This document shows, piece by piece, positions 4,745 to 61,600 of a DNA stretch of 64,000 nucleotides. The notes under the pieces were generated by a model that was given only the letters and a program-made list of their open reading frames with translations, was not told the DNA's origin and did no database searches. Source of the DNA: Squalus acanthias (taxonomy: Eukaryota); the NCBI GenBank assembly GCA_030390025.1, contig CM059432.1:61444001-61508000 (forward strand). Reading direction: 5' to 3'. The number at the start of each line of letters is the position of its first letter. Position 1 is the first letter of the stretch. The translations under genes were made by a program, and so were the position numbers.

Positions 4745-4928
4745 GTAAGGTGCCACATAAAAGGTTACTGCACAAGATAAGAGCTCACGGGGTTGGGGGT
4801 AATATATTAGCATGGATAGAGGATTGGCTAACTCACAGAAAACAGAGAGTTGGGATAAATGGGTCATTTTCAGGTTGGCAAACTGTAACTAATGGGGTGC
4901 CGCAGGGATCAGTGCTGGGGCCTCAACT
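4745..4928 (+). mobile_element. Internal CR1 RT fragment flanked by a 31-bp direct repeat
   Basis: Encodes KVPHKRLLHKIRAHGVGG...[12 protein letters not shown]; agtgtgctaccaactgagccacagctgacac occurs at 4714-4744 and 4929-4959. Confidence 0.9.
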
Positions 4929-6385
4929 AGTGTGCTACCAACTGAGCCACAGCTGACACTGGAACGGCGATATACTTCCAAGTCAGGATGGTGTGTGACT
5001 TGGAGGGGAACTTGGAGATGGTGGTGTTCCCATGCGCCTGCTGCCCTTGTCCTTCTAGGTGGTAGAGGTCGTGGATTTGGGAGGTGCTGCTGAAGTAGCC
5101 TTGGCGAGTTGCTGCTGAAGAAGCCTTGGCGAGTTACTGCAGTGCATCTTGTTGATGGTACACACTGCAGCCATGGTATGCCGGTGGTGGAGGAGTGAAT
5201 GTTTAAGGTGGTGGATGAGGTGCCAATCAAGCGGGCTGCTTTGTTTTGGATGGTGTTGAGCTTCTTGAGTGTTGTTGGAGCTACACTTATCCAGGCAAGT
5301 GGAGAGTATTCCATCACACTCCTGTGCCTTGTAGATGTGGAAAGGCTTTGGGGAGTCAGGAGGTGAGACACTCGCCACAGAATACCCAGCCTCTGACCTG
5401 CTGTTGTTGCCACACTATTTATGTGGCTGGTCCAGTTTGGTTTCTGGTCAATGGTGACCCCGAGGATAATCATGGTGGGGGATTTGGCGATGGTGATGCC
5501 ATTGAATGTCAAGGGGCGGTGGTTAGACGTGCGCTTGTTGGAGATAGTCATTTCCTGGCACTTGTGTGGTGCGAATGTTACCTGCCACTTATCAGCCCAA
5601 GCCTGAATATCGTCCAGGTCTTGCTGCATGTAGGCATGGACTGCTTCATTTTCTGAAAAGTTGCGAATGGCACTGAACACTGTGCAGTCATCAGCGAACA
5701 TCTCCACTTCTGACCTTATGATGGAGGGAAGGTCATTGATGAAGCAGCTGAAGATGGTTGGGTCTAGGACACTGCCCTGAGGAACTCCTGCAGTGATGTC
5801 CTGGGGCTGTGATGATTGACCTCCAACCAGCACAACCATCTTCCTTTGTGCTAGGTATGACTCCAGCCAATGTAGAGTTTAGTGCCTGATTCCTGTTGAC
5901 TTCAGTTTTGCTAGGGTTCCTTGATGCCACACTCGATCAAATGCTGCCTTGATGTCAAGGGCAGTCACTCTCACCTCACCTCTGGAATTCAGCTCTTTTG
6001 GACCAAGGCTGTAATGAGGTCTGGAGCTGAGTGGTCTTGGTGGAACCCAAACGGGGCATCAGTGAGCAGGCTATTGGTGAGTAAGTGCCGCTTGATAGCA
6101 CTGTCGACGACACCTTCCATCACTTTGCTGATGATTGAGAGTAGACTGATGGGGCGGTAATTAGCCAGATTAGATTTGTCCTGCTTTTTGTGGACAGGAC
6201 ATACCTGGGCAGTTTTCTACATTGTCAGGTAGATGCCAGTGTTATAGCTGTACTGGAACAGTTTTGCTAGTGGCATGGCTAGTTCTGGAGCACAAGTACT
6301 CAGCACAACAGCTGGGATGTTGTCAGGGCCCACAGCCTTTGCTGTATCCAGTGCGCTCAGCTGTTTCTTGATATCAAATGGAGTG

Positions 6386-6699: not shown

Positions 6700-8445
6700 A
6701 ATTGGCTGAAGACTGGCTTCTGTGGTGGTGGGGACCTCAAGAGGAGGCCAATATGGATCATCCACTCGGCACTTCTGGCTGAAGATGGTTGCAAATGCTT
6801 CAGCTTTGTCTTTTGCACTCACATGCTGGGCTCCACTATCATTGAGGATGAGGATATTCATGGAGCCTCCTCCTCCTGTTAGTTGTTTAATGGTCCACCA
6901 CCATTCATGACTGGATGTGGCAGGACTGCAGAGCTTTGATCTGATCTGTTGATTGTGGGATCGCTTAGCTCTGTCTATAGCATGCTGCTTCCGCTTTTTA
7001 CCACGCATGTAGTCCTGTGTTGCAGCTTCCCCAGGTTGTCACCGCATTTTTAGGTACGCCTGGTGCTGCTCCTGGCATGCTTTTCTGCACTCCTTATTGA
7101 ACCAGGATTGGTCCCCTGGCTTGATGGTAATGGTAGAGTGAGGGATATGCCGGGTTATGAGTTTATAGATTGTGGTGGAATACAATTCTGCTGCTGGTGA
7201 TGGTCCACAGCACCTCATATATGACCAGTTTTGAGCTGCTAGATCTGTTCTGAATCTATCCCATTTAGCACGGTGGTAGTGCCACACAACACGATGGAGG
7301 GTGTCCTCAGTGTGAAGACAGGACTTCGTCTCCAAAATGACTCCATGCATAGGTCTCCTTTTTGCTCCCTACTCGGCCCCACCCCTCCTCTTACTACCCG
7401 TTTACTATTTATATGCCTATAGAAGACTTTTGGATTACCTTTTATGTTGGCTACCATTCTATTCTCATACCCTCTCTTTGCCCCTCTTATTTTCTTTTTC
7501 ACTTCTCCTCTGACCTTTCTATATATAGCCTGATTCTCAGATGTATTTGCAACCTGACATCTGTCATATGTGTTCTTTTTCTGCTTCATCATATTCGCTA
7601 TCTGTTTCATCATCCAGGGAGCTCTGACTTTAGTTGCCCTACATTTCCCCCTCGTGGGAATGTACTTCAACTGTACCCGAACTATTTCCTCTTTAAAGGC
7701 AGCCCATTGTTCCATTACAGTTTTGCCTGCCAATCTTTGATTCCAGTTTACCCGGGCCAGATCTGTTCTCATCCCACTGAAATTGGCCTTCCCCCAGTTA
7801 AACATTCTTACTCTAGATTACTCCCTGTCCTTTTCCATAGCTAATCTAAACCTTATGATATTATGATCACTGTTCCCTAAATGTTCACCTACTGACACTT
7901 GCTCCACTTGACCTATCTCATTCCCCAGAATGAGATCCAGCAATGTCTCCTCCCTCGTCGGAAACATACTGATCAAGAAAGTTCTCCTGAACACACTTCA
8001 GAAATTCTTCCCCTTCTCTGCCCTTTACACTATTGCAATCCCAGTCTATATTAGAATAGTTGAAGTCCCCCATTATTACTACATCAAATTAACACACCAA
8101 ATCTTCTCACCTTTCACCAAACCATATTCCCATCTGATTTTCCAGATTTTCATTTATTCATCTGATATAAAATTTGTAACCAATTGTTTATAATACCATC
8201 TTATCCCCTTTTTGAATTTAATTTAAGCAGAAACCCTCCATACATAATCACCTTTGAGATCAGTTGTTCTAAATAGTGTTTCTTATTCTGATATAACTTC
8301 CCGTCTGCCTATTTATTCCTTTAAACGATCCCTTTAATTACTTGTGCATAAGAACATAAGAAATAGGAGCAGGAGCAGGCCATTCGGCCCCTCGAGCCTG
8401 CTCCACCATTTAATGAGATCATGGCTGATCCGATTTTGGCCTCAA

Positions 8446-10108
8446 GTGGGGTTCCGACGTGATGTTAACGGGCAACTGGAAATTTTGGTTGTTCTACCGG
8501 GGGGCCGACAACAAATCATGCTTATTGACACCGGTTCATCCGTTACCATCATCCATACCCCACACCCTGAACGCCATGCTGCAGCGGGCAAGGGCTGCTT
8601 GATATTACAAGGCTTTGATGGGAGGTCAACCTCTGCTTTTAAGGGAGAAATGATAACTATGCGCACAAACGGGATTGATTTGAATGTTGATGACCCTGTC
8701 ATGATGACAACTCCTGACAGAAGGGGCATATTGGGAAGTGATGTTTTGGAAAGTTACGGGACGATTATTGATTACAACCAGAGGTGTATTTGGATCAGGA
8801 CAGGAAGTAGTGAATTGGTCAAAATATCGGATGCCCACTCCGTATTTGCGATTAAGAGGACTTGCTTGTACGAGGCACCAGATCACCCAGATGAACGAGT
8901 CAGATTATTAATTCAAATGCACTCACCCGCATTTGCCACTAGTAAGCGTGACTGCGATCGAATGGAGGGTGAGGAGACAATTAACGGCCCGTCCCACTCC
9001 TTTGTTAAGCAGTACCCAATTTCCAAAGAAAGTCATCCCTGTATTAGAGATGTCATCGACTCCCTCTGAAAACAGGGCATTCTGAGAACTGGCACTTTCA
9101 CGACCAATTCACCAGCTTGGCCGGTTCGGAAGCCGGACGATAGCTGGGGGCTCACTATTGATTACCAAAGTCTTAACAAGGCTACGCCCAAGAGCGCCTC
9201 TATCATTAAGGATGCGCCAACCTTATTATCAGAAGTCCCAAAAGACTCTAAATACTACTCCACCCTAGACATTGCAAATGGCTTTTTGAGTATTCCCATC
9301 AGAACAGAGGATCAATATAAATTTGCCTTCACCTTTGAGGACCAGAATTACATGTGGACGTGCCTACCCCAAGGCTTCCACAACGCCCCAACCATCTTCC
9401 ATACCAGAATGGTACGGACCCTGAAAGCTTTTTCTAAGCCCCAGTACCTGCTTCAGTATGTCGACGACTTGCTACTGGCTACTAGTACAATCGAGGAGCA
9501 CCTTGAACTGTTAGATGAACTTTTAACACTGTTAAGCAGTGCAGGCTTGAAAATTAACCCTCGAAAAGCTCAGCTTTTGCAGGAACAGGTCACCTATTTG
9601 GGAGTGACGATCTCTCCGTAGGGTCTAAGTCCCGACGAGCACAAGATAGAGGTCATTCAACGATTCCTGCTTCCTGTATCCAGGACAGCGCTCTGATCGT
9701 TTTTGCGACTAGTGGGATACGAGCGTAGTTTTATTCCTGGATTTGCATAACTTGCAAAGCCCCTCTATGAACTGTTAAAAGGAAAAGAGGATCAAATGTC
9801 CTCCCTGTGGGGGCCAGATCACACTGCTGCAGTTGGGAAATTGAAGCAGGCTGTTATGCAGGCTACCTGTTTGATATCACCCGACCTGACACAGCCATTC
9901 CATCTCGAGGTCGCATATACCGACCATAGTCTGACTGCGGTCCCATGTCAAGAACAACTGGACAGGTTACAACCGATCGCATATGCCTCACGGGTTTTCC
10001 AGGGGGCAGAACTGACTTATTCAGCCTGTGAGCGCCACCTACTGGCGACGTTCTGGGCCAGTCAACACTTTACCTACATTACAGGCTTACAGAGGATTAT
10101 CTTGCAAA
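8446..10108 (+). pseudogene. pol: Retroviral pol fragment (protease - RT - connection/tether), no LTRs
   Basis: One reading frame with four stops (9067, 9619, 9694, 9748). Motifs: LIDTGS (8527-8535), GILGSD, QYP, NSPAWPVRKPD, LDIANGF, LPQGFHNAP, YVDD (9457-9468), PFHLEV, PIAYASR. Confidence 0.92.
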
Positions 10109-13100
10109 CTCCACTTTCCTGCCCACTCCCCATAACCCTCGACTCCCCTGTTGCTCAAAAATCTGTCTATCTCAGCCTTGAATATATTCAATGACTCAGC
10201 TTCCACAGCTCTCTGGGGTAAAGAATTCCAAAGATTCACGACCCTCTGAGAGAAGAAATTCCTCCTCATCTTTGTCTTAAATGGGCGACCCCCTTATTCT
10301 GAGACTATGCCCCCTCGTTCTAGATTCCCTGACGAGGGGAAACATCCTCTCAGCATCTACCCTGTCTAACCCCCTCAGAATCTTATATGTTTCAATACGA
10401 TCACCTCTCATTCTTCTCAACTTCAATGAGTATAGGCCCAACCTGCTCAACCTTTCCTCATAAAGACAACCCTTCCATCCCAGGAATCAACCCAGTGAAC
10501 CTTCTCTGAACTGCCTCCAATGCAAGTATATCCCTCCTTAAATAAGGGGACCAAAACTGTACGCAGTACTCCAGGTGTGCTCTCACCAGCGCCCTGTACA
10601 GTTGTAGTAAGACTTCCCTACTTTTATACTCTATCCCCCTTGAAATAAAGGCCAACATTCCATTTGTCTTCCTAATTACTTGCTTCACCTGCATGTTAAC
10701 TTTTTGTGTTTCATGTACGAGGACACCCAAATCCCTCTGTACCGCTGCATTCTGTAGTCTTTCTCCATTTAAATAATATTTTTCTTATCTATTCTTCCTA
10801 CCAAAGTGGATAACTTCACATTTTCCCACATTATACTCCATCTGCAAAATTCTTGCCCACTCACTTAACCTATCTATATCCCTTTGCAGATTCTTTGTGT
10901 CCTCCTCACAACTTGCTTTCCCACCTATCTTTGTATCATCCGCAAATTTGGCTACAATACACTCGCTTCCTTCATCCAAGTCATTAATATAGATTGAAAA
11001 TAGTTGAGGCCCCAGCACTGATCCCTGTGGCACCCCACTAGTTACAGATTGCCATCCTGAAACTGACCCATTTATCCCGACTCTCTGTTCTCTGTTAGTT
11101 AGCCAATCCTCTATCCAATCTAATATATTACCCCCAACACCATGAGCTCTTATCTTATGCAGTAACCTTTTATGTGGCACCTTGTCGAATGCCTTTTGGA
11201 AATCCAAATACACTACATCCACTGGTTCCCTTTTATCCACCCTGCTCATTACCTCCTCAAAGAACTCTAATAGATTTGTCAAACATGATTTCCCATTCAT
11301 AAAACCATGTTGACTCTGTTTGATTGTATTATGATTTTCTAAATGCCCTGCTACTATTTCCTTAATAATGGATTCGAGCATTTTGCCAATGATAGATGTT
11401 AGGCTAACTGGCCAAAAGTTTCCTGCTTTCTGTCTCCCTCCTTTTTTGAATAAGGGCGTTACATTTGTGGTTTTCCAATCCACAGGGACTTTTCCAGAGG
11501 CAAGGGAATTTTGGAAGATTACAACCAATGCATCCATTATCTCTGTAGCCACGTCTTTTAAGACCCTAGGAAGCAGGCCATCAGGTCATGGGGACTTGTC
11601 AGCCTTTAGACCCATAAGTTTGCCTAGCACTTTTTCTCTAGTGATAGTGATTGTTTTAAGTTCCTCCCTCCCTTTTGTCCCTTGATTTTCTACTATTACT
11701 GGGATGTTTTTAGTTTCCTCTACTGTGAAGACAGATACAAAATATTTGTTCAATGCCTCTGCCATTTCCTTGTTTCCCATTATTATTTCCCCAGTTTCAT
11801 CCTCTAAGGGACCAACGTTTATTTTAGCTACTCTCTTCCTTTTTATATACTTGTAGAAGCTCTTACTGTCAGTTTTTATATTTCTTGCTAGTTTACTCTC
11901 ATAAGCTATTTTCTCCCTCTTTACTATTTTTTTTAGTCATCCTTTGCTGGTTTCTAAAATGTTCCCAATCTTCTAGCCTACCACTAATCTTTGCAACATT
12001 GTATGCCTTTTCTTTCAATTTGATACCATCCTTAACTTCCTTGGTTAGCCATGATTGGTTCATCCTTCTCTTCGAGTCTTTCTTTCTCACTGAAATATAT
12101 CTTTGTTGAGAGTTATGAAATATCTCTTTAAATGTCTGCCACTGCTTTTCTACCGTCTTACCTTCTAATCTATTTTCCCAGTCCACTTTAGCCAACTCTC
12201 TCCTCATACCTTTGTAATTGCCTTTATTTAAGTTTAATACTCTAGTTTCAGACCCAAGTTTCTCACCTTCAAACTGAATGTGGAATTCTATCATGTTATG
12301 ATCACTCTTCCCTAGAGGATCCTTTACTATGAGATCATTAATTAATCCTGTTTCATTGCACATTACCAGATCTAAAATAGCCTGTTCCCTGGTTGGTTCC
12401 ACAACGTATTGTTCCAAGAAACTGTCCCAAATACACTCTATGAACTCGTCCTCAAGGCTGCTTTTGCCAATTTGATTTGTCCAATTTATATGAAGATTAA
12501 AATCGCCCACGATTATTGCAGTACCTTTCTTGCAAGCCCCCACTATTTCTTGATTTATACTCTGTCCTATAGTATAGCTACTGTTAGGGGGCCTATAGAC
12601 TACTCCCACCAGTGCCTTCTTTCCCTTACTATTTCTTACCTCCACCCAAATTGATTCTACATCTGGAACTTCCGAGCCAAGATAATTTCTCACTATTGTA
12701 CTGATCTCATCCTTTATTAACAGAGCTACCCCACCTCCTTTTCCTTTCTGTCCATCCTTCCGAAATGTCAAATACCCCTGAATATTCAATTCCCAGCCTT
12801 GGTCACATTGCAACCACGTCTCTGTGATGGCTATTAGATCATACCCATTTATTTCTATTTGTGCCGTCAATTCATCTATCTTGTTACGAATGCTGTGTGC
12901 ATTCAGATAAAGAGCCTTTAATTTTGTCTTTTTATCATTTTTCCCCCACTCTGACCCTATTTGCTGGTGCACTCTTATGTTTGTATGCTCTGTCCCTTCC
13001 TGTCACACTCTGGTTTTCATTGCCCATATCGCTACCCTGCACTATTGCCCTATCCTTTCTCTTTACCTTTCTAAATTTCCCCTCACTTGAACCCTCCCCC

Positions 13101-13129
13101 CCACGATTTAGTTTAAAGCCCTATCTACA

Positions 13130-14065
13130 GCCCTAGTTATTCGATTTGCCAGGACACTGGTCCCAGCATGGTTCAAGTGAAGGCCGTCCCAACAGAACAG
13201 CTCCCTCTTTCCCCAGTACTGGTGCCAGTGCCCCATGAATCGAAACCCATTTCTCCCACACCAATCCTTGAGCCACGCATTCAACTCTCTGATCTTATTG
13301 ACCCTATGCCAATTTGCTCATGGCTCAGGTAGTAATCCAGAGATTATTACCTTTGTGATTCTGCTTTTTAATTTGGCCCCTAGCTGCTCATACTCCCTCA
13401 GCAGAACCTCTTTCTTAGTCCTACCTGTCATTGGTACCTACGTGGACCACGACAACTGGATCTTTCCCCCCCACTCCAAGTTCCTCTACAGCCCCGAGGA
13501 GATGTCCTTAACCCTGGCACCGTGCAGGCAACACAGCCTTCGGGACTCACGCTCTCGGCTGCAGAGAACAGTATCTATCCCCCTAACTATACTGTCTCCT
13601 ACCACTGCGACATTCCTTTTTACACCCCCCGCCCCCTTGAATGGCCCCCTGTACCACAGTGCCGTGGTCAGTTTGCTCATCTTCCCTGCATTCCCTGCTC
13701 TCGTCCACACAGGTTGCAAGAACCTCATAACAGTTGGACAAGTGCAAGGGCTGAGGCCCCTCCAGTGCTACCTCCTGGATCCCCATACCTGCCTCACTCA
13801 CAGTCACACACTCCTGTCCCTGACCACGGGCCAAATCTGAAGTATTTAACCTAAAGGGTGTGACTGCCTCCTGGAACAAAGTGTCCAGGTAACTTTCTCC
13901 CTCCCTGATGTATCGCAATGTCTGCAGCTCGGACTCCAGCTCATCAACTCTGAGCCGAAGTTCCTCGAGCTGCAGACACTTACTGCAGATGTGGTCGCCC
14001 TGGATCACACTGGTGTCCAGCAGCTCCCACATGCTACAGCTGCAACACATCACCTGCCCTGCCAC
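13130..14065 (-). pseudogene. CR1 ORF1 (zinc finger/leucine zipper + SGNH esterase-like), frameshifted
   Basis: CCSCSMW...HICSKC, LEELRLRVDELESEL, VVGDSIVRG, CCLHGARVKD. Confidence 0.88.
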
Positions 14066-14819
14066 CTCTATTGTATTTTATTTAATTAATTATGTAAATA
14101 TCAATCAATTGTCTATTTATAGTTTTTAACCTTGGTAAACTAGGTAATTTATTGTTTAATTTATTAAATTTATTAAAATAAGTTTAGTTAGTTATAAATT
14201 TAGTTATATGCTACAGGTCTTTACTGTAACTTAGCCCTCAGTCCTAAGAGAAAAGAAATACTCACCAGCAATCACCTACCTGCTTACCGGTGACGTCACA
14301 CTCTGATTTTTTTGTTGTTGAACTGGAGCCTCGCTGCTCCTCCCCCGCTGGCTCTGCTCTCGGGCCTCCTCTCGCCGCGCTCTTTATTCTGCTCCCGCCT
14401 GCCACTCCAGTTCCGCCCAGGTCTGCTGGCTCTGCATTGATTTATCGTTTGCCCACATCCTTTTATGTCAATTCACCTGATTTTCTTCCCAAATTGCGTT
14501 TAGTAAAATCATGTACCATTTCTCTTAGCAGTGCATGATTAAATTTTACATAAATATAATTATATAAATCAGAAGGCAAAGATACAAAAAGGAAAATTTA
14601 ACAGAGTATGACAATTCCCAAATGGCAAATTACTATCAGTTCATTATTTGATCCTTCCTTGTCTCCTTGATTCATCCTGGTCCAATATAGTTTTGTTATC
14701 TTTGGGGTGTTGCCTTTCTCCTTTAACATGAGTCCACAGTTCAAACAATTATCACTGTTTCGGAGGTGTTCTTTCATGACCTGTTATGGCTTTAAAATTC
14801 AAAAGATGTTAGTTCTTTT

Positions 14820-15999: not shown

Positions 16000-16974
16000 A
16001 CTTCAATCCTGTTTTCTCACAAAAATTTCAATCTCTGATAGTTGCTGTGGGCTTTCAATTATTTCTCTTCCTAAATCTGTTCTTACTCTTTCTTCATATA
16101 TCGAACAAAGGAATTTCTACCAAACTGCTTTATAGCCTTTGTTTGCTGAAAAAGGGCTGATACAAACTCCTCAACCTCCTGCACAATTTCTTCACTCCCC
16201 CTCTGTTGAACAAAGGAAGCGGTGCAATGGCAGAAAGTATACTAAGAAGGGCAGACTGAGAAACTCATCACCAGTCCCAGTAAACCTCTCCAATGCGGAA
16301 TCATTACGACTGCCTCTCTCACTCCTGCAATGTTGCACCTCTTGCATTGTTCCTTTTCACTCTGAATTTCGAGATGACCCCATTTTACAGAAACTTTCAA
16401 TGCTCCTGAACAAACTGCTTGTTGGTCCACAATTTTATCTTTACATTTCTGAATTTCTTTTCCTGTGCTTCTATTTCTAACTGTTCCTGCTTATTCTCTT
16501 TTTTTAAATCCTCATAGGCAGTAGCAGCCATCTGGCCCACCTCGTTCCAACAAGATTTTACCCGATTCCAAAGAGAATTTTCCCATATGTAACCATACCT
16601 TGGCCACATCATTTGCGGATCTCTCCACACAGAAATGAGCAGCAGAGCACAACAACTTCAGCCCTTTCTCTACAGAGAACTCTTTTTTTTCTACTGGACC
16701 ATCCACACGGTTTCTCACTGTTTTAAACAGCTCCTCTTTTTCACACAATAATTCTGCCACCTGCTTTTCGCTTCTTTCCACGCAAAATGTGAGTCGCATA
16801 CATCAACAAAAACCTTGCTGCTTTTAGTTTCAACTTTTTCTCTTTCACCAACTTCTCTATATGGGTCACCACCATCGCATATGTCGCGTCTGTTTTAGTC
16901 ATTAAGGTAACCAACACCTCACTACCAGCTACACCAATTAGCTTCTTTTGAAAAGCTTCCTTGACAGTTGCCAT
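16000..16974 (-). pseudogene. gag-like / coiled-coil ORF of a decayed provirus (frameshifted)
   Basis: ATG ~100 nt downstream of the PBS; overlapping fragments 16741..16974, 16512..16799 and 16397..16630 are K/E-rich and helical. The 3' boundary is approximate. Confidence 0.55.
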
Positions 16975-17072
16975 AGTTACTCATACTACTGGAGGGATAA
17001 CTCCATGCAACCGCCGAAACGGTTTCCTTCCTAAACAAATCCGATCATCCCAGGTCCCAGATTGCTAGTCAG

Positions 17073-17090
17073 GTCCTTTTATGGTTGCCA
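17073..17090 (-). promoter_or_regulatory. Primer binding site, tRNA-Arg type
   Basis: Minus TGGCAACCATAAAAGGAC versus the recalled ERV9-type Arg PBS TGGCGACCACGAAGGGAC: 14/18 match, three differences at CpG positions. It lies 1 nt after an LTR-like ...TTTTACA end. Confidence 0.7.
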
Positions 17091-17091
17091 T

Positions 17092-17550
17092 TGTAAAAGA
17101 ATTTGAATCTGACACCAAATATGGTTGCAACTTAAAACCTTTTATTGTGTGTGGCCAAATCTTGACACATTCAATGTCTCTAAGCAGTAGTCACACAGAA
17201 AAATAAATACAATTACCCTGTTTTTCTTCTGGGTAGAGACATAACCTTCAACAAACCTTTTGTTCTTGTCTCCCTCTACAAATTGTGAAGGAAAGTGCAA
17301 GAGCTTTATAGGCCTCTAGTCACACATACTGTCCAAGATGATTTGTGAGAGCGTGACAGTAGTTATTGTGAACAAGGCCCCCAGAAATGAGGTAGTTCCT
17401 GACAAAATACCAGATGCTAACTTGTTCACCATTAAGCATGTAACTAAACATCTTGAGCCCATTGACCTGTTTCCTATCTCAAGAATATCTTGGCTATCTT
17501 GTTTCACAATGTATTGATGAAGTTTATTCAAATAGGCATGAATCACACAT
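17092..17550 (-). mobile_element. Putative 5' LTR (outer boundary uncertain)
   Basis: Ends in CA next to the PBS; AATAAA on minus at ~17141-17146; TATAAA on minus at 17305-17310. Confidence 0.5.
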
Positions 17551-21010: not shown

Positions 21011-21017
21011 GTAAAGT

Positions 21018-24000
21018 TAGCCTGTCATTTTAGAAAGCAGTGTCGAGATCTTAAAGGGGAACTTCCTTCTAAAATGAAAAAAAATCATTTAAAAATATGC
21101 AGTCTTAAGCCTTTAGAGCTCAACTGCCTTCTTAAAAAAGAACATTAAAAATAATTCCCAAATGACAGTCTTCAGTTCTTAAAGCTGAACTGCCTTCTGC
21201 ACATAAAAAAATGGTAAAAGTGATTCAGCACTAACACAAATGCCTCAACAAACCAGGGAAGGGGCACCCAGTGTTTCGCACGCAGCACTCCAGCTTTGTG
21301 CAGGGGGTCAACACTGCAAGAGGTGTCCTCTAGCCACAGGGGGCTAGGAGGCCCTCCAGAAAGAACGATGTGGGACCAGATCACCAAGGCCATCACTGCC
21401 AGCAGTGTCAGCCCCACGACCTGGCTCCAGTGCCCAAAGAAGTTTCATGACCTCAGACCAGTGGTCAAGGTCAGTGAATGTATCTTCAGAAGACAACTGC
21501 ACCATAGAAACATAGAAGATAGGAGCAGGAGTAGGCCATTTGGCCCCTCGAGCCTGCTCCGCCATTCGATGAGATCATGGCTGATCATCCAAACTCAGTA
21601 CCCTGTACCTGCCTTCTCCCCATATCCCTTGATACCTTTAGCTTTAAGAAATATATCTAACTCATTCTTGAATATATTTAATGACTTGGCCTCAACTACC
21701 TTCTGTGGTAGAGAATTCCACAGGTTCACCACTCTCTGGGTGAAGAAATTCTTCCTCATTTCTGTCTTAAATGGCTTACCCCTTATCCTTAGAATATGAC
21801 CCCTGGTTCTGGACTCTCCGACCATCGGGAACATTCTTCCTGCATCTAGTTTGTCCAGACCTGTCAGAATTTTATATGTTTCGATGAGATCACCTCTCAT
21901 TCTTCTGTACTCCAGCGAGTATAAGCCCAATCGACCCAATCTCTCCTCATATGTCATTCCTGCCATTCCAGGTATCAGCCTTGTGAATCTTCGCTGAACT
22001 CCTTCCATGGCAAGAACATCCTTCCTCAGATAAGGCGACCAAAACTGCACACAGTACTCAAGGTGTGGTCTCACCAAGGCCCTGTACAACTGCAGCAGGA
22101 CATCCCTGTTCCTATACTCAAACCCTTTCGCTATGAAGGCCAACATACCATTTGCCTTCTTCACCGCCTGCTGCACCTGCATGCTTACCTTCAGCGACTG
22201 GTGCACAAGGACACCCAGGTCTCGTTGCACTTCCCCTTCTCCCAATCTATTGCCATTCAGATAATAGTCTGCCTTTCTGTTTTTGACACCAAAGTGGATA
22301 ACCTCGCATTTATCCACGTGCTATTGCATCTGCCACGCTTCTGCCCACTCACCCAACCTGTCCAAATCATCCTGGAGTTTCTCGGTATCCTCCTCGCAGC
22401 ACACACTCCCACCCAGCTTTGTGTCATCTGCAAACTTGGAGATATTACATTTAGTTCCCTTATCTAGATCATTAATGTATATTGTGAATAGCTGGGGTCC
22501 AAGGACCGATCCCTGCGGTACCCCACTAGTCACTGCTTGCCACTCGGAAAAAGACCCATTAATTCCTACTCTCTGCTTTCTGTCCGCCAACCAGTTCTCT
22601 ATCCAAGTCAATACCTTGCCCCCAATCCCATGTGCCTTAACTTTACACGCTAATCTCTTATGTGGGACCTTATCAAAAGCCTTTTGAAAGTCCAAATACA
22701 CCACATCTACTGGTTCTCCCTTATCTATTTTCCCAGTTACATCCTCAAAAAATTCCAATAGATTAGTCAAGCACGATTTACCTTTTGTAAATCCATGTTG
22801 ACTTTGTCCGATCCTGTCACTGTTTTTCAAGTGCTCAGCTATTACATCTTTTATAATGGACTCTAGCATTTTCCCCACTACCGATGTCAGGCTTACCGGT
22901 CTGTAATTCTCCACTTTCTCTCTACCACCCTTTTTGAATAGTGGGGTAACATTAGCTACCCTCCAATCCATGGGTACAGTTCCAGATTCCATCGAATGTT
23001 GGAAGATGATCAGCAATGCATCTACTATTTCTAGGGCCACTTCCTTAAGTACCCTAGGATGTAGATTATCAGGCCCTGGGGATTTATCGGCCTTCAATCC
23101 CATCAATTTCCCCAACACCATTTCCCTGCAAATACTGATTTCTTTCAGTTCCTCCCTTTCATCAGACCCTATGTTCTCCAACATCTCTGGGAGGTTATTT
23201 GTGTCCTCCTTTGTGAAGACAGAACCAAAATATGCATTTAATTGGTCTGCCATTTCTTTGTTCCCCATTATAACTTCCCCCGCTTCTGACTGCAAGGGAC
23301 CTACACTTGATTTCACTAATCTTTTTCTCTTCACATAACTATAAAAGCTCTTAGTCAGTTTTTATGTACCCAGCAAGCTTACTTTCATATTCTATTTTCC
23401 CCTACTTAATGAATCCCTTTGTCCTCCTTTGTTGAATCCTAAACTGCTCCCAATCCTCAGGGTTACCGCTTTTTCTGGCCAATTTATATGCCCCCTCCTT
23501 GGATCTTATGCTATCCCTGATTTCCCTTGTTAGCCACAGTTGAGTCACACTTTTTGTTTTATTCTTATGCCACACTGGGATGAACAAATTCTGTAGTTCA
23601 TCCATGCAGTCTTTGAATGTTTGCCATTGCCTATTCACCGTCAACCCTTTGAGTGACATTCCCCAATCAATCCTACCCAATTCGCACCTCATTCCATCGT
23701 AGTTTCCTTTATTTAAATTCAAGACCCTAGTCTCTGATTCAACTACTTCACTCTCCATCCTAATGAAGAATTCTATCATATTATGATCACTCTGACCCAA
23801 GGGGCCTCGTACAACAAGATTGCTAATTAATCCTTTCTCGTTACATAATACCCAGTCTAAGATGGCCTGATCTCTGGTTGGTTCCTCGACATATTGTTCC
23901 AGAAAACCATCCCGTAAACATTCTAGGAATTCCTCCTCCACAGTATTTTTACTAATTTCGTTAGCCCAATCTATATGTAAATTAAAGTCACCCATGATGA

Positions 24001-27000
24001 CTGCTATGCCCTTACTGCATGCTTCTCTAATTTCCCTTTTAATGCCATCCCCAACCTCCGTATTACTGTTTGGAGGTCTATATACCACTCCCACTAACGT
24101 TTTCTGCCCCTTGTTATTTCTCAGTTCTACCCATACAGATTCTGCATCATCAGAGCTAATATCCTTCCTTTCAATTGTGTTAATCCCCTCTTTAACCAGC
24201 AATGCTACCCCACCTCCCTTTCTTTTTTGCCTATCTTTCCTAAATATTGAATAACCCTGGATGTTGAGTTCCCAGCCTTGGCCACCCTGGAGCCATGTTT
24301 CTGTAATCCCAATCAAATCGTATTCATTTACCTCTATTTGCGCAGCTAATTCATCCACCTTGTTCCGAATGCTCCTTGCATTAAGACACAAAGCCTTCAG
24401 GCTTGTTTTTTTAACGCTCTCAGACCTATATGAATTATTATTTACTGTGACCATGTTTGATTTAAACCGTTGAGTTCTTTGCCTTCTACTTTTGTTTTTC
24501 TCCTTCCTGTCTTTTGCTTTTATCCTTGTTTCCCTTTCCTCTGTCTCCCTGCTCAGGTTTCCACCCCCCTGCCACTTTAGTTTAAACGCTCCCCAACAGC
24601 ACTGGCAAACACTCCCCCTAGGACATCGGTCCCGGCCCAGCCCAGGTGCAGACCGTCCCGTTTGTACTGGTCCCACCTCCCCCAGAACCGGTTCCAATGT
24701 CCAAGGAATTTGAATCCCTCCCCCTTGCACCATTCCTCTAGCCACGTATTCATTTGAAATATCCTCCTATTTCTACTCTGACTAGCACGTGGCACTGGTA
24801 GCAATCCTGAGATTACTACCTTTGAGGTCCTATTTTTTAAATTTACCTCCTAACTCCCTATATTCTGCTTTTAGGACCTCATCCCGTTTTTTACCTATAT
24901 CGTTGATGCCTATGTGCACCACGACAACTGGCTGTTCGCCCTCCCCCTCCAAAATGTTCTGTAGCCGCTCCGAGACGTCCTTGACCCTTGCACCAGGGAG
25001 GCAACACACCATCCTGGAGTCTCGTTTGCGGCCGCAGAGACGCCTATCTATTCCCCTTACAATTGAATCCCCTATCACTATAGCTCTTCCACACTTTTTC
25101 CTCCCAGCCTGTGCAGCAGAGCCACCCATGGTGCCAGGAAGTTGGCTGCTGCTGCCTTCCCCTGATAAGTCATCCCCCCCAACAGCATCCAAAGTGGTAT
25201 ATCTGTTTGAGAGGGGGATGGCCACAGGGGACCCCTGCACTACCTGCCTGCACCTCTTACTCTGCCTGGTGGTCACCCATTCACTTCCTGCCTGTACACC
25301 CTTTACCTGCGGTGTGACCAACTCGCTAAACATGTTATCCACAACGTTCTCAGCGTCGCGAATGCTCCAATATGCATCCATCCGCAGCTCCAGCGCCGCA
25401 ATGCGGTCCATCAGTAGCTGCAGCTGGATACACTTCCCACACACATGGTCGTCAGGGACACAGGAAGCGTCCCTGATTTCCCACATATAGCAGGAGGAGC
25501 ATATCACGGGGTGGAGCTCTCCTGCCATGACTTACCCTTTAATTAATTAATTAAAATTAAATTAAATGAATCCCACCAATTTCACTTCAATTTAATGATA
25601 TACTCAAGGGCCCTTGTTTAACAGCAGTCCCCGCTACACCACAGAGACTCTAGAAACTATAAACCACAGAATTTAAGTATGGAAAAAAGAAGAGAGAAAT
25701 ACTCACCAACCAATCACTTACCTGCTTTCTGGTGATGTCACACTTCGATTACGTTTTACTCCTGTCTCCCGCTCGGAGATTGGTAAACCTACCTGCTCCT
25801 CGGGCTCGCTTTTATCCTCTGCCGCCGCCGCTCCTCCTAGGTCCGCACCGCCGCTGCTGTGGGCCTACCTGCTCCCAGGGCTTGCTTTTATCCTCTGCCG
25901 CCGCCGCCACCACTGGCCTCACACACTGCTCATTGCACGATCTGGCCTCATCACTCACCTACCAACAATCTGTACCAAACACAAGGCACACCTCACATTC
26001 CTAGCTTCACCTTGCCCCCTTAGAGGAGACGGTGCTGGCCATTCTTGGCAGGGGCATGGTTAAGCCCTTAGCCAGCGGCAGGGCTGAAAGAATACAAGAT
26101 GCTGGTATCCTCATACGTTATCCTCCTTCTCAGATCCCACTTCCCCCTCATCCCACAATCTCTTCTGATTTATAAGCTGCACATGGTGTAAGCATGCAGC
26201 TCTTGCTTTCCCACCCTCCCCTCACCACAACTCTACCCTTGTGCCTTCCTCATTTCAGACACCCAAGAAATCCAGCCTGCCCAGCCAGTGGTTGACCAAG
26301 AAGAGGAAGAGGAGAGTGAAGAAGAAACACCATCACTCGATTTGACACTCCCAGCCACCAGCTCCTCGAGGTCATCCTGCAAGGCCATCTGCAGTGTCCC
26401 CGCTGAAATTTAGCAGTCTTCCACCAGCTATGCTGCAGCCACTGGGGTAGCACTGCATGACATCAGTAGGATAGGCAAAGGCAAAGGCAGATGCAAGACA
26501 GTCACGAAGGGAACACACGAGAGTGATTAGTTGATTTCTTGATTTCATATTAGATGCATTTATGGATAAAGTTGGATTGGAATGTTTGCTTTGTGGCGGC
26601 TTTTATTTCAGCATTGTGGCCAAGAGAACACTGTGATGGTCAGTAACAGAGGGAAGGTAAGGTGTGGGACAAATGTTGAAAGGGGAATTGGGGTTGTGGT
26701 CAGTGGTACCGCAGGCAGATGATTCCATCCCGGATATCCCGGCCAGAAAGGGGCTGTCTGGGTTGCATCTGTCCTTCCACTTCCTCCTCTTCTGCTATCA
26801 AGCTGACTTATCACATCGTTAAAAGGGTACTTAAATTGAAATGGACACGACTTAACTTTCTGTGATGAGTTCAGTTCGTATCTAGGGCGCAAATACAGCA
26901 ACTTCACACCATTCAATCATTGCAATGGTGAGGTAGCCTGCGAAATGCTGTTTTCGTGATGGTATCGGCGGAGTGACGCATCTCAGACACTGACTTTTGG

Positions 27001-28979: not shown

Positions 28980-30382
28980 TGGGGCTGGCTAAATTGGATA
29001 GCCCCCGAAAACGGGCGCCGAGGTCACGATTAACCCACGCCCATTGATTGAAATGCAGACAGCATGCCAACTTCATGCTGCCTGCTCATTAACATGATTT
29101 CAGTGTCCAGCCAGCACTAACCATGCAGTTCATTGGTTGGACGCATCAGTAGGGGGCCAATATCGTAACTTGCTAGCACCAGTTAAACCTAGCCTGCACT
29201 GCTTAAAGCTAGCCTGGAACTCTTAAAGGGCAGGTGCATTGTGGCTGGAGCAGGTATTGGGAGTCATGCAGGAAGTGAATCTGACCTGGGGAACAGTGAG
29301 GAATGGCACAACATGGGAGAGAGCGAGCTCCAAGGTTTTCGGACACTGCACTGGAGGCCTTGGTGGAGGAGGTGGAAAGTAGGAGAGATGTCTTGTATCC
29401 GCAGGATGCCCTCAGGACACATGCTCAAAAGGCAGATAGCCATCGAGGTCAATGCCAGGGGTTAAGCGCCAAAGATTTGGATGCAGTGATGCAAGAAGTT
29501 CAATGGCCTCACGAGTGGTCAAGGTCAGTGAAATGCACCTTCAAACGCCAGATCCTACCAACTGCACCCCTAGCCTCAGCCACTGCTCAATTCACCACAC
29601 CCCCCATCACTCACCTACCAACAATCTCTATCAATCAGGACTCATACCTAACATTCATAGCTTCACCTCACCCTCACACACTTTGCACTGCTGCAAGCCT
29701 CACACCCACATCTCACAGCTTCCACACATTGCCAGCTAATCAACCGTAATAGCCACATCACACAAATAGATTGCACGTCACTCACTGACACACTTCCCTC
29801 TCTCTTGGAGGAGATGGTGGCGCACAACTGGAGGCAGCAGGAGCTAACCGGCGGGGGACAGGTGCGACTGCACATCCTAACCCCCGTTGAGTAGGCGGTG
29901 CTGGCCATTATTGGAATGGCCATTGCTGAGGTCGTGGCCAGCGGCAGGGCTGAATCCATCGAAGATGACAGTATCCTCATACCTAATCCTCCTCACATCC
30001 CACTTCCCCCTCATCCCATAATCTCTTCTGATTTACAAGCTGCAGATAGTGTAAGCATGCACCTCTTACATTCCCCCCACCCCTCATCACAACCTTATCC
30101 TTATGCCTTTCTCCTTTCAGATACCGAAGAACTGCAACCTGCTGAGGCAGTGGTGGAAGAGCAAGACGACAGAGATGAAGATGACACACCGTCACTCGGT
30201 GCATGCGGATTGACGTCATGATCTGCCTGCTCTGTATACTTCCGGCGGATGTTCACTGCGTGCAAGCTAACGCTTGCACCAATATGGCATCTGGTGCGAT
30301 ACGCTCCACAAGTGTGCGCGCACGCACTGCGGACACCATTTTGTAGCTCTAAGGACACTCATAGCGCAAAAAAAATCCCAGT
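28980..30382 (+). mobile_element. Harbinger derivative with intron-containing Myb/SANT-like ORF remnant
   Basis: MAQHGRERAPRFSDTALEALVEEVESRRDVLYP (Myb_DNA-bind_5/NAIF1-like); splice-like sites gtcaag|gtcagt and ctttcag|. Confidence 0.8.
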
Positions 30383-32386: not shown

Positions 32387-32490
32387 TAAACAGAAAATGC
32401 TGGAAATACTCAGCACTGCAAGTCAGGCAGCATCTGTGGAGAGAGAAACAGAGTTAACCTTTCAGGTCAATAGACTTTCATCAGAACAGT
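32387..32490 (-). mobile_element. Penelope-type short repeat with hammerhead core
   Basis: Minus strand gtt-CTGATGA-aagtctattgacct-GAAA-ggttaact. Confidence 0.65.
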
Positions 32491-33400: not shown

Positions 33401-34619
33401 GGGGGTTAAATTGGTTAGCCCCCCGAAAACTGGCGCGGGGATTGTGAAGCGCGATTAACCTGCGCCCGTTGAGTGGAATGCAGGCAGCACGCCAACTTCT
33501 TGCTGCCTGCTCATTATAATGATGATTTGTGTGTGTGCACTTCCCGCGCTGTTCATTGGCTGCACGCATCAGCAGGGAGTCCAATATCCTGAATGGCTAA
33601 AGCAAGCCTGCACTATTTAAAGCTAGCCTGCACCTCTTAAAGGGGAGGTGCATTGTGGCTGCAACAGGTGCTGTGAGTCGTTCTACAAGTGAGTCTCACC
33701 TGGGAAATAGTGAAGAATGGCTGATCATGAGAGAAAGCGGGCACAAAGATTTACGGACACTGCACTGGAGATCTTGGTGAGGTGGAAAGGAGAGATGTCC
33801 TGTACTGCTGGGAGGGGAGGAGGTGCAGAGGCCCTCCAGCCACATGCTCAGAAGGCAGTGACAAGAGATAGTGGAGGAGGTCAATGCCAGGTGTATTGCT
33901 CCAAGAACATGGAAACAGTGCAGGAAGAAGTTTAATGATCTCACACGAGTGGTCAAGGTCAGTGAATGCATCTTCAAATGCCAGATCCTACCAACTGCAC
34001 CACTAGCCTCAGCCACTGCTCAATTCAGCACACCCCCATCACTCATCTACCAACAAGCTCTATCAATTAGAGCGCAACGCTAATATTCATATGCTTCACC
34101 TCACCCTCACACACTTAGCACTGTTGCAAGGCTTAAACCCACATCTCACAGCTTACACACACAGGCAACTATTCAACCATGACAGCTACATCACTCAAAC
34201 AGATTGCACAACACTCACTGAACACTTCCCCACCACATGCAGGAGAAGGTGGCACACAACCTGAGTCAGCAGGAACTAAACGGAGGGGGAGAGGCACCCC
34301 TACATGTTCTAACCCCCATGGAGGAGACGGTGCTGGCCATTATAGGAAGGGTCATTGCTGAGGCTGTGGCCACCGGCGTGGCTGAAGGCATTGAAGATTA
34401 AGGTATCCGTATAGCGTTGCACACTGATTGATGTCATGATCTGCCTGCTCTACATGCTGCTGGTGGGCATTAGGTTTGCGTGCGCTAACCCCTTTACCAA
34501 TATGGCATCCGGCGCACTTCGCTTCAGAATTGTGCGCGTGTGCCATAGATGACATTTGGAACCTTAAGAGGCCTCCTAGCGCCCAAAAAACAGGCATTAC
34601 CGAGCCCAATTTCGCCCCC
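33401..34619 (+). mobile_element. Harbinger derivative with Myb/SANT-like ORF remnant
   Basis: TIRs gggggttaaattgg / ccaatttcgccccc; MADHERKRAQRFTDTALEILV; PRTWKQCRKKFNDLTRVVK. Confidence 0.82.
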
Positions 34620-56718: not shown

Positions 56719-56806
56719 AAGGTCATCGACCTGAAACGTCAACTCTCTTTCTCTCTCCACGGATGCTGCCTGGCCTGCTGAGTTTTTCCAGCGTTTTCTG
56801 TTGTTA
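56719..56806 (+). mobile_element. Penelope-type short repeat, partial hammerhead
   Basis: aggtcatcgacct-GAAAC-GTC-aactct; the CTGANGA box is missing. Confidence 0.65.
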
Positions 56807-57714
56807 TGCCCAAGTACTCTGCTTTGTGTTTATGGAAAGATAGGGGTTGCGCTGACTTTTCATAGCTTAGTATACATATTTGACAGCTGGGTTTAGCCGA
56901 CATTGCTGGAATTCATGTTGTGGCCCCACAGAAGCTGAATAGATTTCATCTCAACCAAACTGACTTGGGTGTTCCTTTCTTCCTTTGATCTTGGTGTAGA
57001 ACAATCTATTGGTTTCACTTACTTTTGATTTTATTTTTACAATTTATATCATCTTTTGGTATTGATAGTATTGGATAGTTTTGTGGCTAGGGTCACCTTT
57101 TGGGAATTGCTAATGTATCATATTTTTTCCTTTTCTGGTTTGTACAGTTTCAACGATCTAATTTATCTGTTTTAATTGTTCTGTGTGAAATGCAGCATTC
57201 TATGATGGAAAGCTAGAAGTATTGCAAGGCAGCAGCATATAAAGCATTCTCAAATGACATTGTCGACCACAAGGTTAAAGTGGTTTGTCACTGTTAACTG
57301 ACCATACGAGTAGTAGATCTTTGTTCTTTTATAATGTTTATGTATAAAATCAAAATACTTGCAGCTCAACTCTAACCATTAAGCTACCAAATTTCTTCAG
57401 CCAGTTAGGTTGTCAATATAAAAAATTACAAATGTGCCACTAAACGCAAACTGAAATGGTATTGTTCCGTGTAAATATTTTCTTTGAGTGCTAGTTACCA
57501 GGCAATAACCCGAATTGTACACTATGTATATTTCTCAATTTTAGACACTGCAAGTTTCATCATGGTTTAAAGTTTTGTCAAAAAGATAAGAGAATAAATT
57601 GGTGAGAAGTGCTAATATTTTAGTAAATTTGCGGTTAATTGTGTTATTCTTAAGTTATGTATGTATTTTCATCCTGTGGGTAGAGTGTCATGACGAAAGA
57701 AAGTAAAGCTCAGC

Positions 57715-59570: not shown

Positions 59571-61600
59571 GGCCAAGAAATTCCACGTCATTAAAACCTG
59601 CCGGTGTTAATGGCCGCCGAAATTGATGGTGCTGGCAGGACCAGTAAATTGGCGCTGGTGGCTAATTAACATTAGCCCAGTGCTAAACTTACTGTGCAAC
59701 GCCGTTCTGGTGGCGTTAGTCCCGGCAGGAGGCCCAAATGTAGCAAGGCCATAGCATTATTGCTGCAAGAACAGCCTTCTCTTAAAGCAAGGCTGTCATT
59801 TCAGAAAGCAGTTCAGTCCCTTAAAGGGGAACTGCCTTCTGCAATGAAAAAAATAAAAATCATATAAAAATAGGCAGTTTTTAGCCCTCAGAGCTCACCT
59901 GCCTTCGAAAAAAATCTTAACATTAAAAAGAATTCCCAAGTGGGAATCTTCAGTTCTTAAAGCTGAATTGTCTTCCGCACCTAGAAAAATGCTAAAGTGC
60001 TTCAGCACTAACACAAATGGCTCAACAAACCAGGGAAGGGGCACCCAGGGTCTTGCACACAGCACTCCAGCTTTGTGCAGGGGGTCAACACTGCAAGAGA
60101 GGTCTTCTATCCACAGGGGCCAGGAGGCCCTCCAGAAAGAAGGATGTGGGACCAGATCACCAAGGCCGTCACTGCCAGCAGTGTCGCCCCCACCACCTGG
60201 CTCCAGTGCCCAAAGAAGCTTCAAGACCTCAGATCACTGGTCAAGGTCAGTGAATGCATCTTCAAAAGCCATCTCCTACCAACTGCACCACTAGCCTCAC
60301 ACACTGCTCAATGTCAGGCCAGCGGCCAGGCTGAGTGCCAGGAGGCACCCCCCTCCCCCAATCACTCACCTACCAACAATCTGTACCAAACACGAGGCAC
60401 ACCTCCCATTCCTAGCTTCACCTCACCCCCTTGGAGGAGACGGTGCTGACCATTCTTGGCAGGGGCATGGTTGAGCCCTTGGCCAGTGGCGGGGCTGAAA
60501 GGATACGAGATGCTGGTATCCTCATACCCATGCACCTCTTGCTTTCCCGCCCTCCCCTCACTACAACTCCACCCTTGTGCCTTCCTCATTTCGCACATCC
60601 AAGAAATGCAACCTGACCAGCCAGTGGTTGACTAAGAAGAGGGAGAGGAGAGTGAAGAAGAAGAAGCACAGTTACTAGATTTCACACTCCCAGCCACCAG
60701 CTCCTCAAGGTTGACCCGCAAGGCCATTTGCAGTGTCCCCCACTGAAAGTCAGCAGCCTTTCACCAGCCATGCTGCAGCCACTGGGGTAGCACTGTGTGA
60801 CAACAGGAGGATAAGCAAAGGCACACACAAGACAGTCACTAAGGGAATGCATAAGAGTGATTAGTTGATTTCTTGATGTCATATTGGATGGATAGATGTA
60901 TAAAGTTGGATTGGAAAGTTTGCTTTGTGGTGGCTTTTATTTCAGCATTGTGGCTAAGAGGACGCTCTGATGGTCAGTAACAGAGGAAAGGTAAGATGTG
61001 GGACAAATGTTGAAAGGGGAATTGGGGTTGTGGTCACTGGTCCCACAGGCGGATGATTCCATCCCGGATATCCCGGCCAGAAAAAGGCTGTCTGTGTTGC
61101 ATCCTTACTTCTGCTTTGTCCTCTTCTGCTTCCTCCTCTTCTGCCTCTTCCTCTTCTGTGTCTTCCTGTTCCCACTGTGAGCGAATGCTGTAAATCTGAA
61201 ATAAAAGCATAAAATGCTGGAAATACTCAGCAGATCAGACAGCATCTCGACCTGAGATGTGAACTCTGTTTCTCTCTCCACAGATGCTGCCTGACCTGCT
61301 GAGTATTTCCAGCATTTTCTGTCTTCTCAGCGGCCTTCCTTTACCAATCGAGGCCTTGCAAGCGTCCAGTAGCATGCCCTGCACACTTAAACTGTTAATG
61401 TATATTGCACCAAGCCACTACTTCAATAACATTTGAAAAATCCAGTCCAAAAGCTTAAATGCAAACATACCTGAAAGATGTGTGTGTCCCTTTAAGAAGT
61501 GCTGACAGCATCTCTGTCAGTCTGCTGCACACTCGCTTTTCAGAGCGAGCTTAGGACCCAGCGCTAAATTCATGGCGTTAAGGTAGGGAATTTCTGGGCC
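59571..61600 (+). mobile_element. Internally deleted PIF/Harbinger element
   Basis: TIRs ggccaagaaattcc / ggaatttctgggcc with TTA TSD; Myb-like remnant on plus; acidic transposase-like C-terminus (EEEEAEEEEAEED...GRDIRDGIIRLWDQ*) on minus at ~61033-61173. Confidence 0.88.
61198..61322. mobile_element. Penelope-type repeat in inverted (fold-back) arrangement
   Basis: 61211-61247 and 61282-61318 are near-perfect reverse complements. Confidence 0.75.

Follow-up and report, generated by a model that had tools for sequence, protein, structure and literature searches.

How a retroviral pol fragment without LTRs came to lie inside a CR1 element is the question raised by this locus. The window (the whole stretch of 64,000 nucleotides, or 64 kb, that was analysed) consists of vertebrate DNA rich in repeats, including several CR1 LINEs. 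One of these, a near-full-length CR1 on the minus strand, flanks the viral insert on both sides. The insert is a 1,661-bp pol fragment with the order protease-RT-tether, located on the plus strand and hence antisense to its host, as the initial annotation had described it (1.66 kb of pol in the opposite orientation inside a CR1). The coordinates of these features are summarized in Table 1.

Table 1. Coordinates (positions in the window) of the pol insert, its junctions and the host CR1
Feature	Position	Strand	Basis
Pol fragment, LTR-less	8446..10106	+	translation, Pfam, alignment with relatives, parent-family contigs
Protease	about 8503-8751	+	DTG motif alignment with relatives; weak Pfam match
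RT core	9127-9612	+	Pfam RVT_1
Tether/degenerate RNase H	about 9808-10106	+	Pfam RT_RNaseH_2
AA at the left junction, one copy of a 2-bp target duplication (or microhomology)	8444..8445	.	32-kb copy; contig joins; one parent-family contig (record 18) matches
AA at the right junction, other copy of a 2-bp target duplication (or microhomology)	10107..10108	.	32-kb copy; contig joins
CR1 3' end: ORF2 stop (TGA 8444-8442), 3'UTR, (CATAAGAA)n tail	8347..8445	-	comparison with window copies; folding
CR1 body: ORF2, ORF1, 5' region	10107..14400, 5' end approximate	-	homology to other copies
ORF2 (endonuclease + RT)	about 12933-10108	-	2 stops, 3 frameshifts
AT-rich low-copy flank	8085..8346	.	contigs of organisms B and C

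The insert is read in a single frame (8401/8446, plus strand) with exactly four stops, at 9067 (TGA), 9619 (TAG), 9694 (TGA) and 9748 (TAA), and zero frameshifts, which agrees with the original count. Two of the stops had been taken for CGA>TGA-like changes; the relatives' contigs allow at most one TGA to be CpG-derived, and the other TGA is not of the CpG type. Pfam matched RVT_1 at residues 228-389 (E 2.8e-30) and RT_RNaseH_2 at residues 455-550 (E 1.2e-22), and the RT carries the motifs LPQG (LPQGF) and YVDD. The protease gave a weak Pfam match, below the cut-off (E 0.006), and its DTG motif aligns with that of the relatives. The left cut lies about 25 codons upstream of the protease DTG and the right cut near the tether end, and the terminal letters, GTGG and TGCA, are both internal to pol. 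Since relatives such as P0098 and P0099 continue into a second RNase H and integrase, the last domain of the insert was identified as the retroviral tether, and these two following domains are missing here because the insert ends before them. Gag, env and LTR are likewise absent from the insert.

The remainder of the provirus was searched for in the window. Self-comparison of the 64 kb resulted in no LTR, as the repeats of the insert were only 15-20-nt chance matches. Tblastn of 10 full-length pol relatives matched the insert only, and so did tblastx of the 5' 6.9 kb of the snakehead retrovirus; the lack of LTRs reported initially was thus confirmed, and no other viral part was found in the 64-kb window. 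A local donor was rejected due to this absence of further viral sequence. An intron or spliced RNA was also rejected, as the insert ends are GT..CA on the plus strand and TG..AC on the minus strand, with no GT..AG. The insert is dead, and it is likely functionless and not a mobile unit.

The insertion falls after the final sense codon of the CR1 ORF2 and before its stop codon. An intact CR1 copy at 32 kb reads CCTC-AA-CTCC across this site, and contigs from four of four runs connect 8443 with 10107, leaving two letters that could belong to either side. Together, the intact copy and these joins delimit the virus-derived part to 8446-10106, with AA present twice and zero loss of CR1 bases. With the boundaries given in the initial annotation (8445 and 10109), the right AA had been placed inside the insert, which ends at 10106. 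A clear TSD had not been seen there; AA stands on both sides. From the sequence, the paired AA may represent a 2-bp duplication or microhomology, and a 2-nt microhomology is possible at the left, where one parent-family contig (record 18) matches the AA. The microhomology suggested earlier for the right junction is plausible in that relatives continue H-T/S-P-H; however, the record 8 contig, the sole listed parent-family contig passing the right end, ceases to match at 10106.

The four other CR1 copies of the window align to 8347-8430/8435 and then resume from 10107-10118, and the insert is absent from the 3' ends of all four. Downstream of the insert, the CR1 3' end is intact, and its stem-loops scored z -1.96, with 5 of 200 shuffles equally good. 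Towards the 5' end of the host CR1, homology with the copy at 21.5 kb extends as far as 13606 and recurs at 14246-14308. No TSD of the host CR1 was found, with only AT-rich 7-8-mers shared between 8311-8346 and 14001-14800 and with an approximate CR1 5' end. The best named protein match of the CR1 RT came from Callorhinchus milii (70%), and dating of the CR1 from close proteins was unusable due to best matches of only 70-74%. Among the contigs at the 8085-8346 flank (records 9, 17, 25), those of organisms B and C extend 23-25 nt into the CR1 tail. This overlap, which falls below the 31-letter bridging rule, suggests that the CR1 insertion is also present in organisms B and C, species about 3-5% diverged.

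Some further observations were made on the repeats and other features of the window. The CR1 stretch at the ORF2 stop (8430-8445 and 10107-10120; copies 21586, 49439 and 54198) is the most variable portion of the CR1 3' end; many contig joints fall there, and it may be a fragile spot. A second near-full-length CR1, from another subfamily and 69% identical to the host CR1, occupies 21503-25750 (minus strand) and retains long open ORF1/ORF2 stretches of 233-454 aa. Open RT frames of 336 and 329 aa at 546-1553 and 4892-5878 (both minus strand) belong to other LINE families. Related GC-richer repeats, 63-93% alike, were found at 21012-21498, 25908-26796, 28987-30320, 33404-34538 and 59783-61130. 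The region 61208-61321 contains 40-nt inverted arms 34 nt apart and has related pieces at 1747-1834, 32418-32479 and 56721-56808; it is related to a short repeat present in both orientations and looks like a small MITE- or SINE-type family. A decayed coding-like stretch at 16000-17100 (minus strand), with a low-complexity charged translation and several stops, had no repeat in the window and no match to the 5' 6.9 kb of the snakehead retrovirus; it is possibly a dead gag-like sequence or a host pseudogene.

For the identity of the donor, the best protein matches were Xenopus tropicalis P0098 (51% over 96% of the query), coelacanth and frog proteins, and the best solved-structure match was foamy Pol. 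The RT tree was a quick IQ-TREE of 61 rows, with SH-aLRT only, no bootstrap and no foamy rows. The insert (P0001) grouped with P0098 and P0006 (SH-aLRT 99) and fell inside a 46-row retrovirus clade with snakehead, gamma- and epsilon-type rows (SH-aLRT 98). This placement of the RT within the retrovirus clade, in a quick tree lacking bootstrap and foamy rows, points to a Retroviridae-derived pol. A single-protein scan of viral_contigs gave 0 loci. The best of 17 viral_contigs loci was the snakehead retrovirus (E 4e-79 vs 2e-55 for the next; 35% identity), a locus equated by eye with the SnRV row in the supplement of PMC7947760. The 61-row tree without bootstrap gave no supported sister grouping of the insert with the snakehead retrovirus, whose related ERVs form the clade Huo of Xu et al. 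2018 (PMC6001957).

A lokiretrovirus was suggested by the "NYNRIN-like" names of matches and by unstarred shark rows: all six cartilaginous-fish rows found in the Loki supplement (PMC7947760) are unstarred. This candidate was rejected by motif and tree. The Loki RT motif is CPFG in four of the five supplement rows seen and TPFG in one, whereas the insert has LPQGF, and five CPFG-motif proteins formed a separate clade (SH 99), these rows being motif-picked stand-ins and not the sequences of PMC7947760 itself. Lokiretroviruses are also characterized by an Env like the mononegavirus fusion protein, and the insert contains no env. With the pol of basal amphibian, coelacanth and fish ERVs, the insert shares the PR-RT-tether order, LPQG and YVDD. 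On these sequence comparisons, a basal retrovirus nearest the Xenopus ERV, loosely snakehead-like, would be a fair label for the donor. In the sawshark GPRC6A-like gene model P0097, the first about 35 residues are 73% identical to the tether of the insert; this model is likely an annotation chimera with another fragment of the donor retrovirus family. Taken with the Callorhinchus milii match of the CR1 RT, it makes a cartilaginous fish the likely host.

Sequences related to the insert were retrieved from related organisms. Twenty of the 23 listed sequencing runs hold part of the stretch, and none holds half of its words (best 0.36); the listed holders include no RNA run and have no bearing on expression. 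In organisms A, B and C, every part of the insert is covered by contigs, with up to 22 of them per site, and its mean difference from the 29 listed pol pieces is 9.5% (5-12%). The donor is a multicopy retrovirus family of related species. Matches of parent-family contigs begin at 8444-8459 on the left and reach 10106 on the right. Five listed family contigs (records 1, 10, 18, 19 and 27; organisms A, B and C) carry 38-333 unmatched nt upstream of 8444-8478, and that of record 8 carries 136 nt beyond 10106 without a CR1 match. As these family contigs continue beyond the insert on either side with sequence other than CR1, the other copies are not CR1 chimeras. For this analysis, minus-strand records were read in their own orientation, as inferred from records 17, 25 and 27; with the opposite strand reading, the left end would be placed at 8446 by record 26, and the overhang of record 8 would disappear. 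A CR1-pol junction was spanned by none of the 32 pieces listed (with 299,389 further pieces outside the listing, and with CR1 dominating the loose-end table).

The evidence on the orthologous site points in opposite ways in organisms A and C. In organism A, the flank is identical over 148 nt (record 9), all 15 listed pol pieces differ from the insert by 7-12% and depth is lacking for many window alleles, which hints that the insert is absent at its orthologous site, although contigs drop rare variants and the counts in X1, X6 and X8 were truncated. In organism C, record 29 differs from the insert in 13 of 259 letters (5%), which equals its flank divergence (single-piece p 0.005 vs the 9.5% mean), and it could be an orthologous insert older than the organism C split. 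No empty orthologous allele was seen in the contigs of organisms A, B and C, which break within CR1.

The decay of the insert was compared with that of its host. The 4 stops in the 553 codons of the pol fragment do not differ from the 2 stops plus 3 frameshifts found over the 942 codons of ORF2 (p 0.41 for stops, p 0.73 for all lesions). The implied divergence was 5.7% (1.6-15%) for the insert and 1.8% (0.2-6.6%) for ORF2, with overlapping ranges. Because both are equally decayed, CR1 and insert may also have been inserted jointly. The many CpGs that the initial annotation had seen in the insert were found (CpG o/e 0.65, with 0.30 for the CR1 body and 0.41 for the window as a whole). They are no sign of youth, since the insert is as decayed as the CR1. 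Among the 40 differences listed (1,107 more exist), CpG-type changes made up 12 of 19 A/T-side transitions vs a 28% background (p 0.001). This enrichment characterizes the insert as an old, methylation-decayed copy rather than a fresh one.

Entry by integrase was excluded because both ends are inside pol and nothing else viral is present in the window. Retroviral integrases produce target duplications of 4-6 bp, and the 2-bp duplication is a further mark against integrase; on these grounds, together with the missing LTR, the first description of the insertion as not integrase-mediated was upheld. The best reading, to which we assign a probability of roughly 0.6, is a one-off end-joining capture of pol as filler at a staggered germ-line break in an existing CR1, and the break-repair capture put forward initially therefore ranks highest. 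The break would have left a 2-nt overhang at the CR1 ORF2 stop, and the filler would be either an incomplete viral cDNA or a copy for which a genomic provirus served as template. The left end would have been joined through AA and the right perhaps through imperfect homology, fill-in would yield the 2-bp duplication, and neutral decay would follow. Such filler capture accounts at once for the antisense orientation, for the truncation at either end, for the absence of a deletion and for the 2-bp duplication. Repair capture permits either orientation, with which the opposite orientation to CR1 is compatible. Its hallmarks are present, namely truncation at both ends, no hallmarks of integrase or TPRT, and AA twice, with an uncertain right end. 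Counted against it, the return to the exact CR1 base is equally expected from a tethered template switch.

The other readings were weighed against the same features. Unlikely, in our estimate, is that a LINE RT copied sense viral RNA where the CR1, already in place, was nicked or broken, with priming from the right junction and joining via AA on the left side. Copying of the endonuclease-independent or internally primed type would use abundant sense RNA, the orientation of the insert fits right-end priming, and CR1s are abundant here. At the right end, CR1 10108-10114 encodes T-P and the first base of H, which is the modal motif of the relatives (T in 7, P in 4 and H in 11 of 11 rows past this end). 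Endonuclease-independent L1 insertions are among the cases described in PMC1920257; however, those L1 cases often delete target DNA, and none was lost here. The lack of poly(A), R or U3 also excludes an ordinary retrocopy, and the sole listed contig crossing the right end (record 8) stops matching at 10106. Quite improbable is a double template switch during CR1 retrotransposition, in which 99 nt of CR1 RNA were copied before a jump at AA to an antisense viral template, 1.66 kb of copying and a jump back. The return exactly at the departure point would fit, and so would the equal decay of both parts if CR1 and insert arrived together; double jumps appear among the chimeras described in PMC2104539. 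This reading, however, requires a minus-strand template, and the RT must still copy 4.3 kb to the CR1 5' end. The chimeras described in that source join same-orientation parts and do not rejoin the first RNA at the same base. The template switch named as an option in the initial annotation thus keeps weak support, with the antisense insert set against the same-orientation LINE chimeras of PMC2104539.

We regard as very improbable that the locus is the daughter of a mobile chimeric CR1 that carried viral pol and retrotransposed as a unit. The near-full-length host CR1 does keep its 3'UTR stem-loop and tail intact downstream of the insert, so an RNA substrate is possible in principle, but six listed family contigs enter non-CR1 sequence, the 32 listed pieces from three related organisms include no junction-spanning one, and the other four CR1 3' ends of the window lack the insert. 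The mobile CR1-pol chimera raised at first thus found no support among the listed contigs. The more elaborate version, in which a CR1 RT jumped onto and off an antisense retroviral template and so made a full-length CR1 with a viral protease-RT cassette, later propagated in sharks as a LINE-retrovirus chimera, is just as hard to credit. Equally slight is the chance of an assembly chimera of CR1 and a provirus: the best listed run holds 0.36 of the words and no listed contig spans a junction, but two false joins would be needed, with only 2 nt of overlap, restoring CR1 to the base, in a window without N at least 51 Mb into its piece. Least probable of all is an ordinary provirus integrated in CR1 that later lost both ends by two deletions. 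In the relatives, members of the donor family are built like an ordinary retrovirus, with RNase H and integrase following; the deletions, however, must end exactly at the CR1 boundaries with both LTRs gone and no CR1 base taken, and the 2-bp duplication is shorter than the 4-6 bp of integrase.

Several known systems were compared with the preferred end-joining capture. Ono et al. 2015 (PMC4516963) describe the capture of truncated MuERV-L/MaLR sequences at DNA breaks in mouse zygotes, plus two natural cases; pol pieces of MuERV-L cut at both ends, with 1-5-nt microhomology, are reported there at Cas9 breaks, and one of the natural inserts, a truncated piece of gag-pol, shows two microhomologies of 2 bp. 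The present insert resembles the captures described there as an internal ERV fragment with both ends cut and no LTR. It differs from them in its host site, a CR1 in a cartilaginous-fish-type genome, in the old age of the event and in its basal retroviral donor, and any RT involvement in the present insertion would be conjectural. Of the numt events described by Hazkani-Covo and Covo 2008 (PMC2567098), 54% lack a deletion, and target duplications of 1-11 nt occur in 17 of 71. The likeness to these NHEJ fillers covers passive capture, no target deletion, a short staggered-break duplication and short or imperfect microhomology, although the filler here is retroviral rather than mitochondrial. The bi- and tripartite LINE template-switch chimeras of Gogvadze et al. 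2007 (PMC2104539) also have foreign sequence near the LINE 3' end; however, the parts of those described are in the same orientation and TSD-flanked, whereas here the insert runs antisense and the LINE continues from the very base at which it broke off. By analogy, the event would belong to an already known type, the integrase-free capture of retroviral sequence at breaks. A shallow search of the published literature found no CR1-ERV chimera, which is weak evidence of its absence from print.

If the junctions recurred, a LINE carrying retroviral enzyme genes would represent a route of module exchange between the two main classes of retroelements. As a single dead capture, the locus would provide a clear case from nature, in a non-mammalian genome, of retroviral DNA that reached the germ line with no help from integrase, in which the surrounding CR1 repeat reveals the pre-insertion site to the base. 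The insert also marks a basal retrovirus family that is present in many copies in several related species of shark type.
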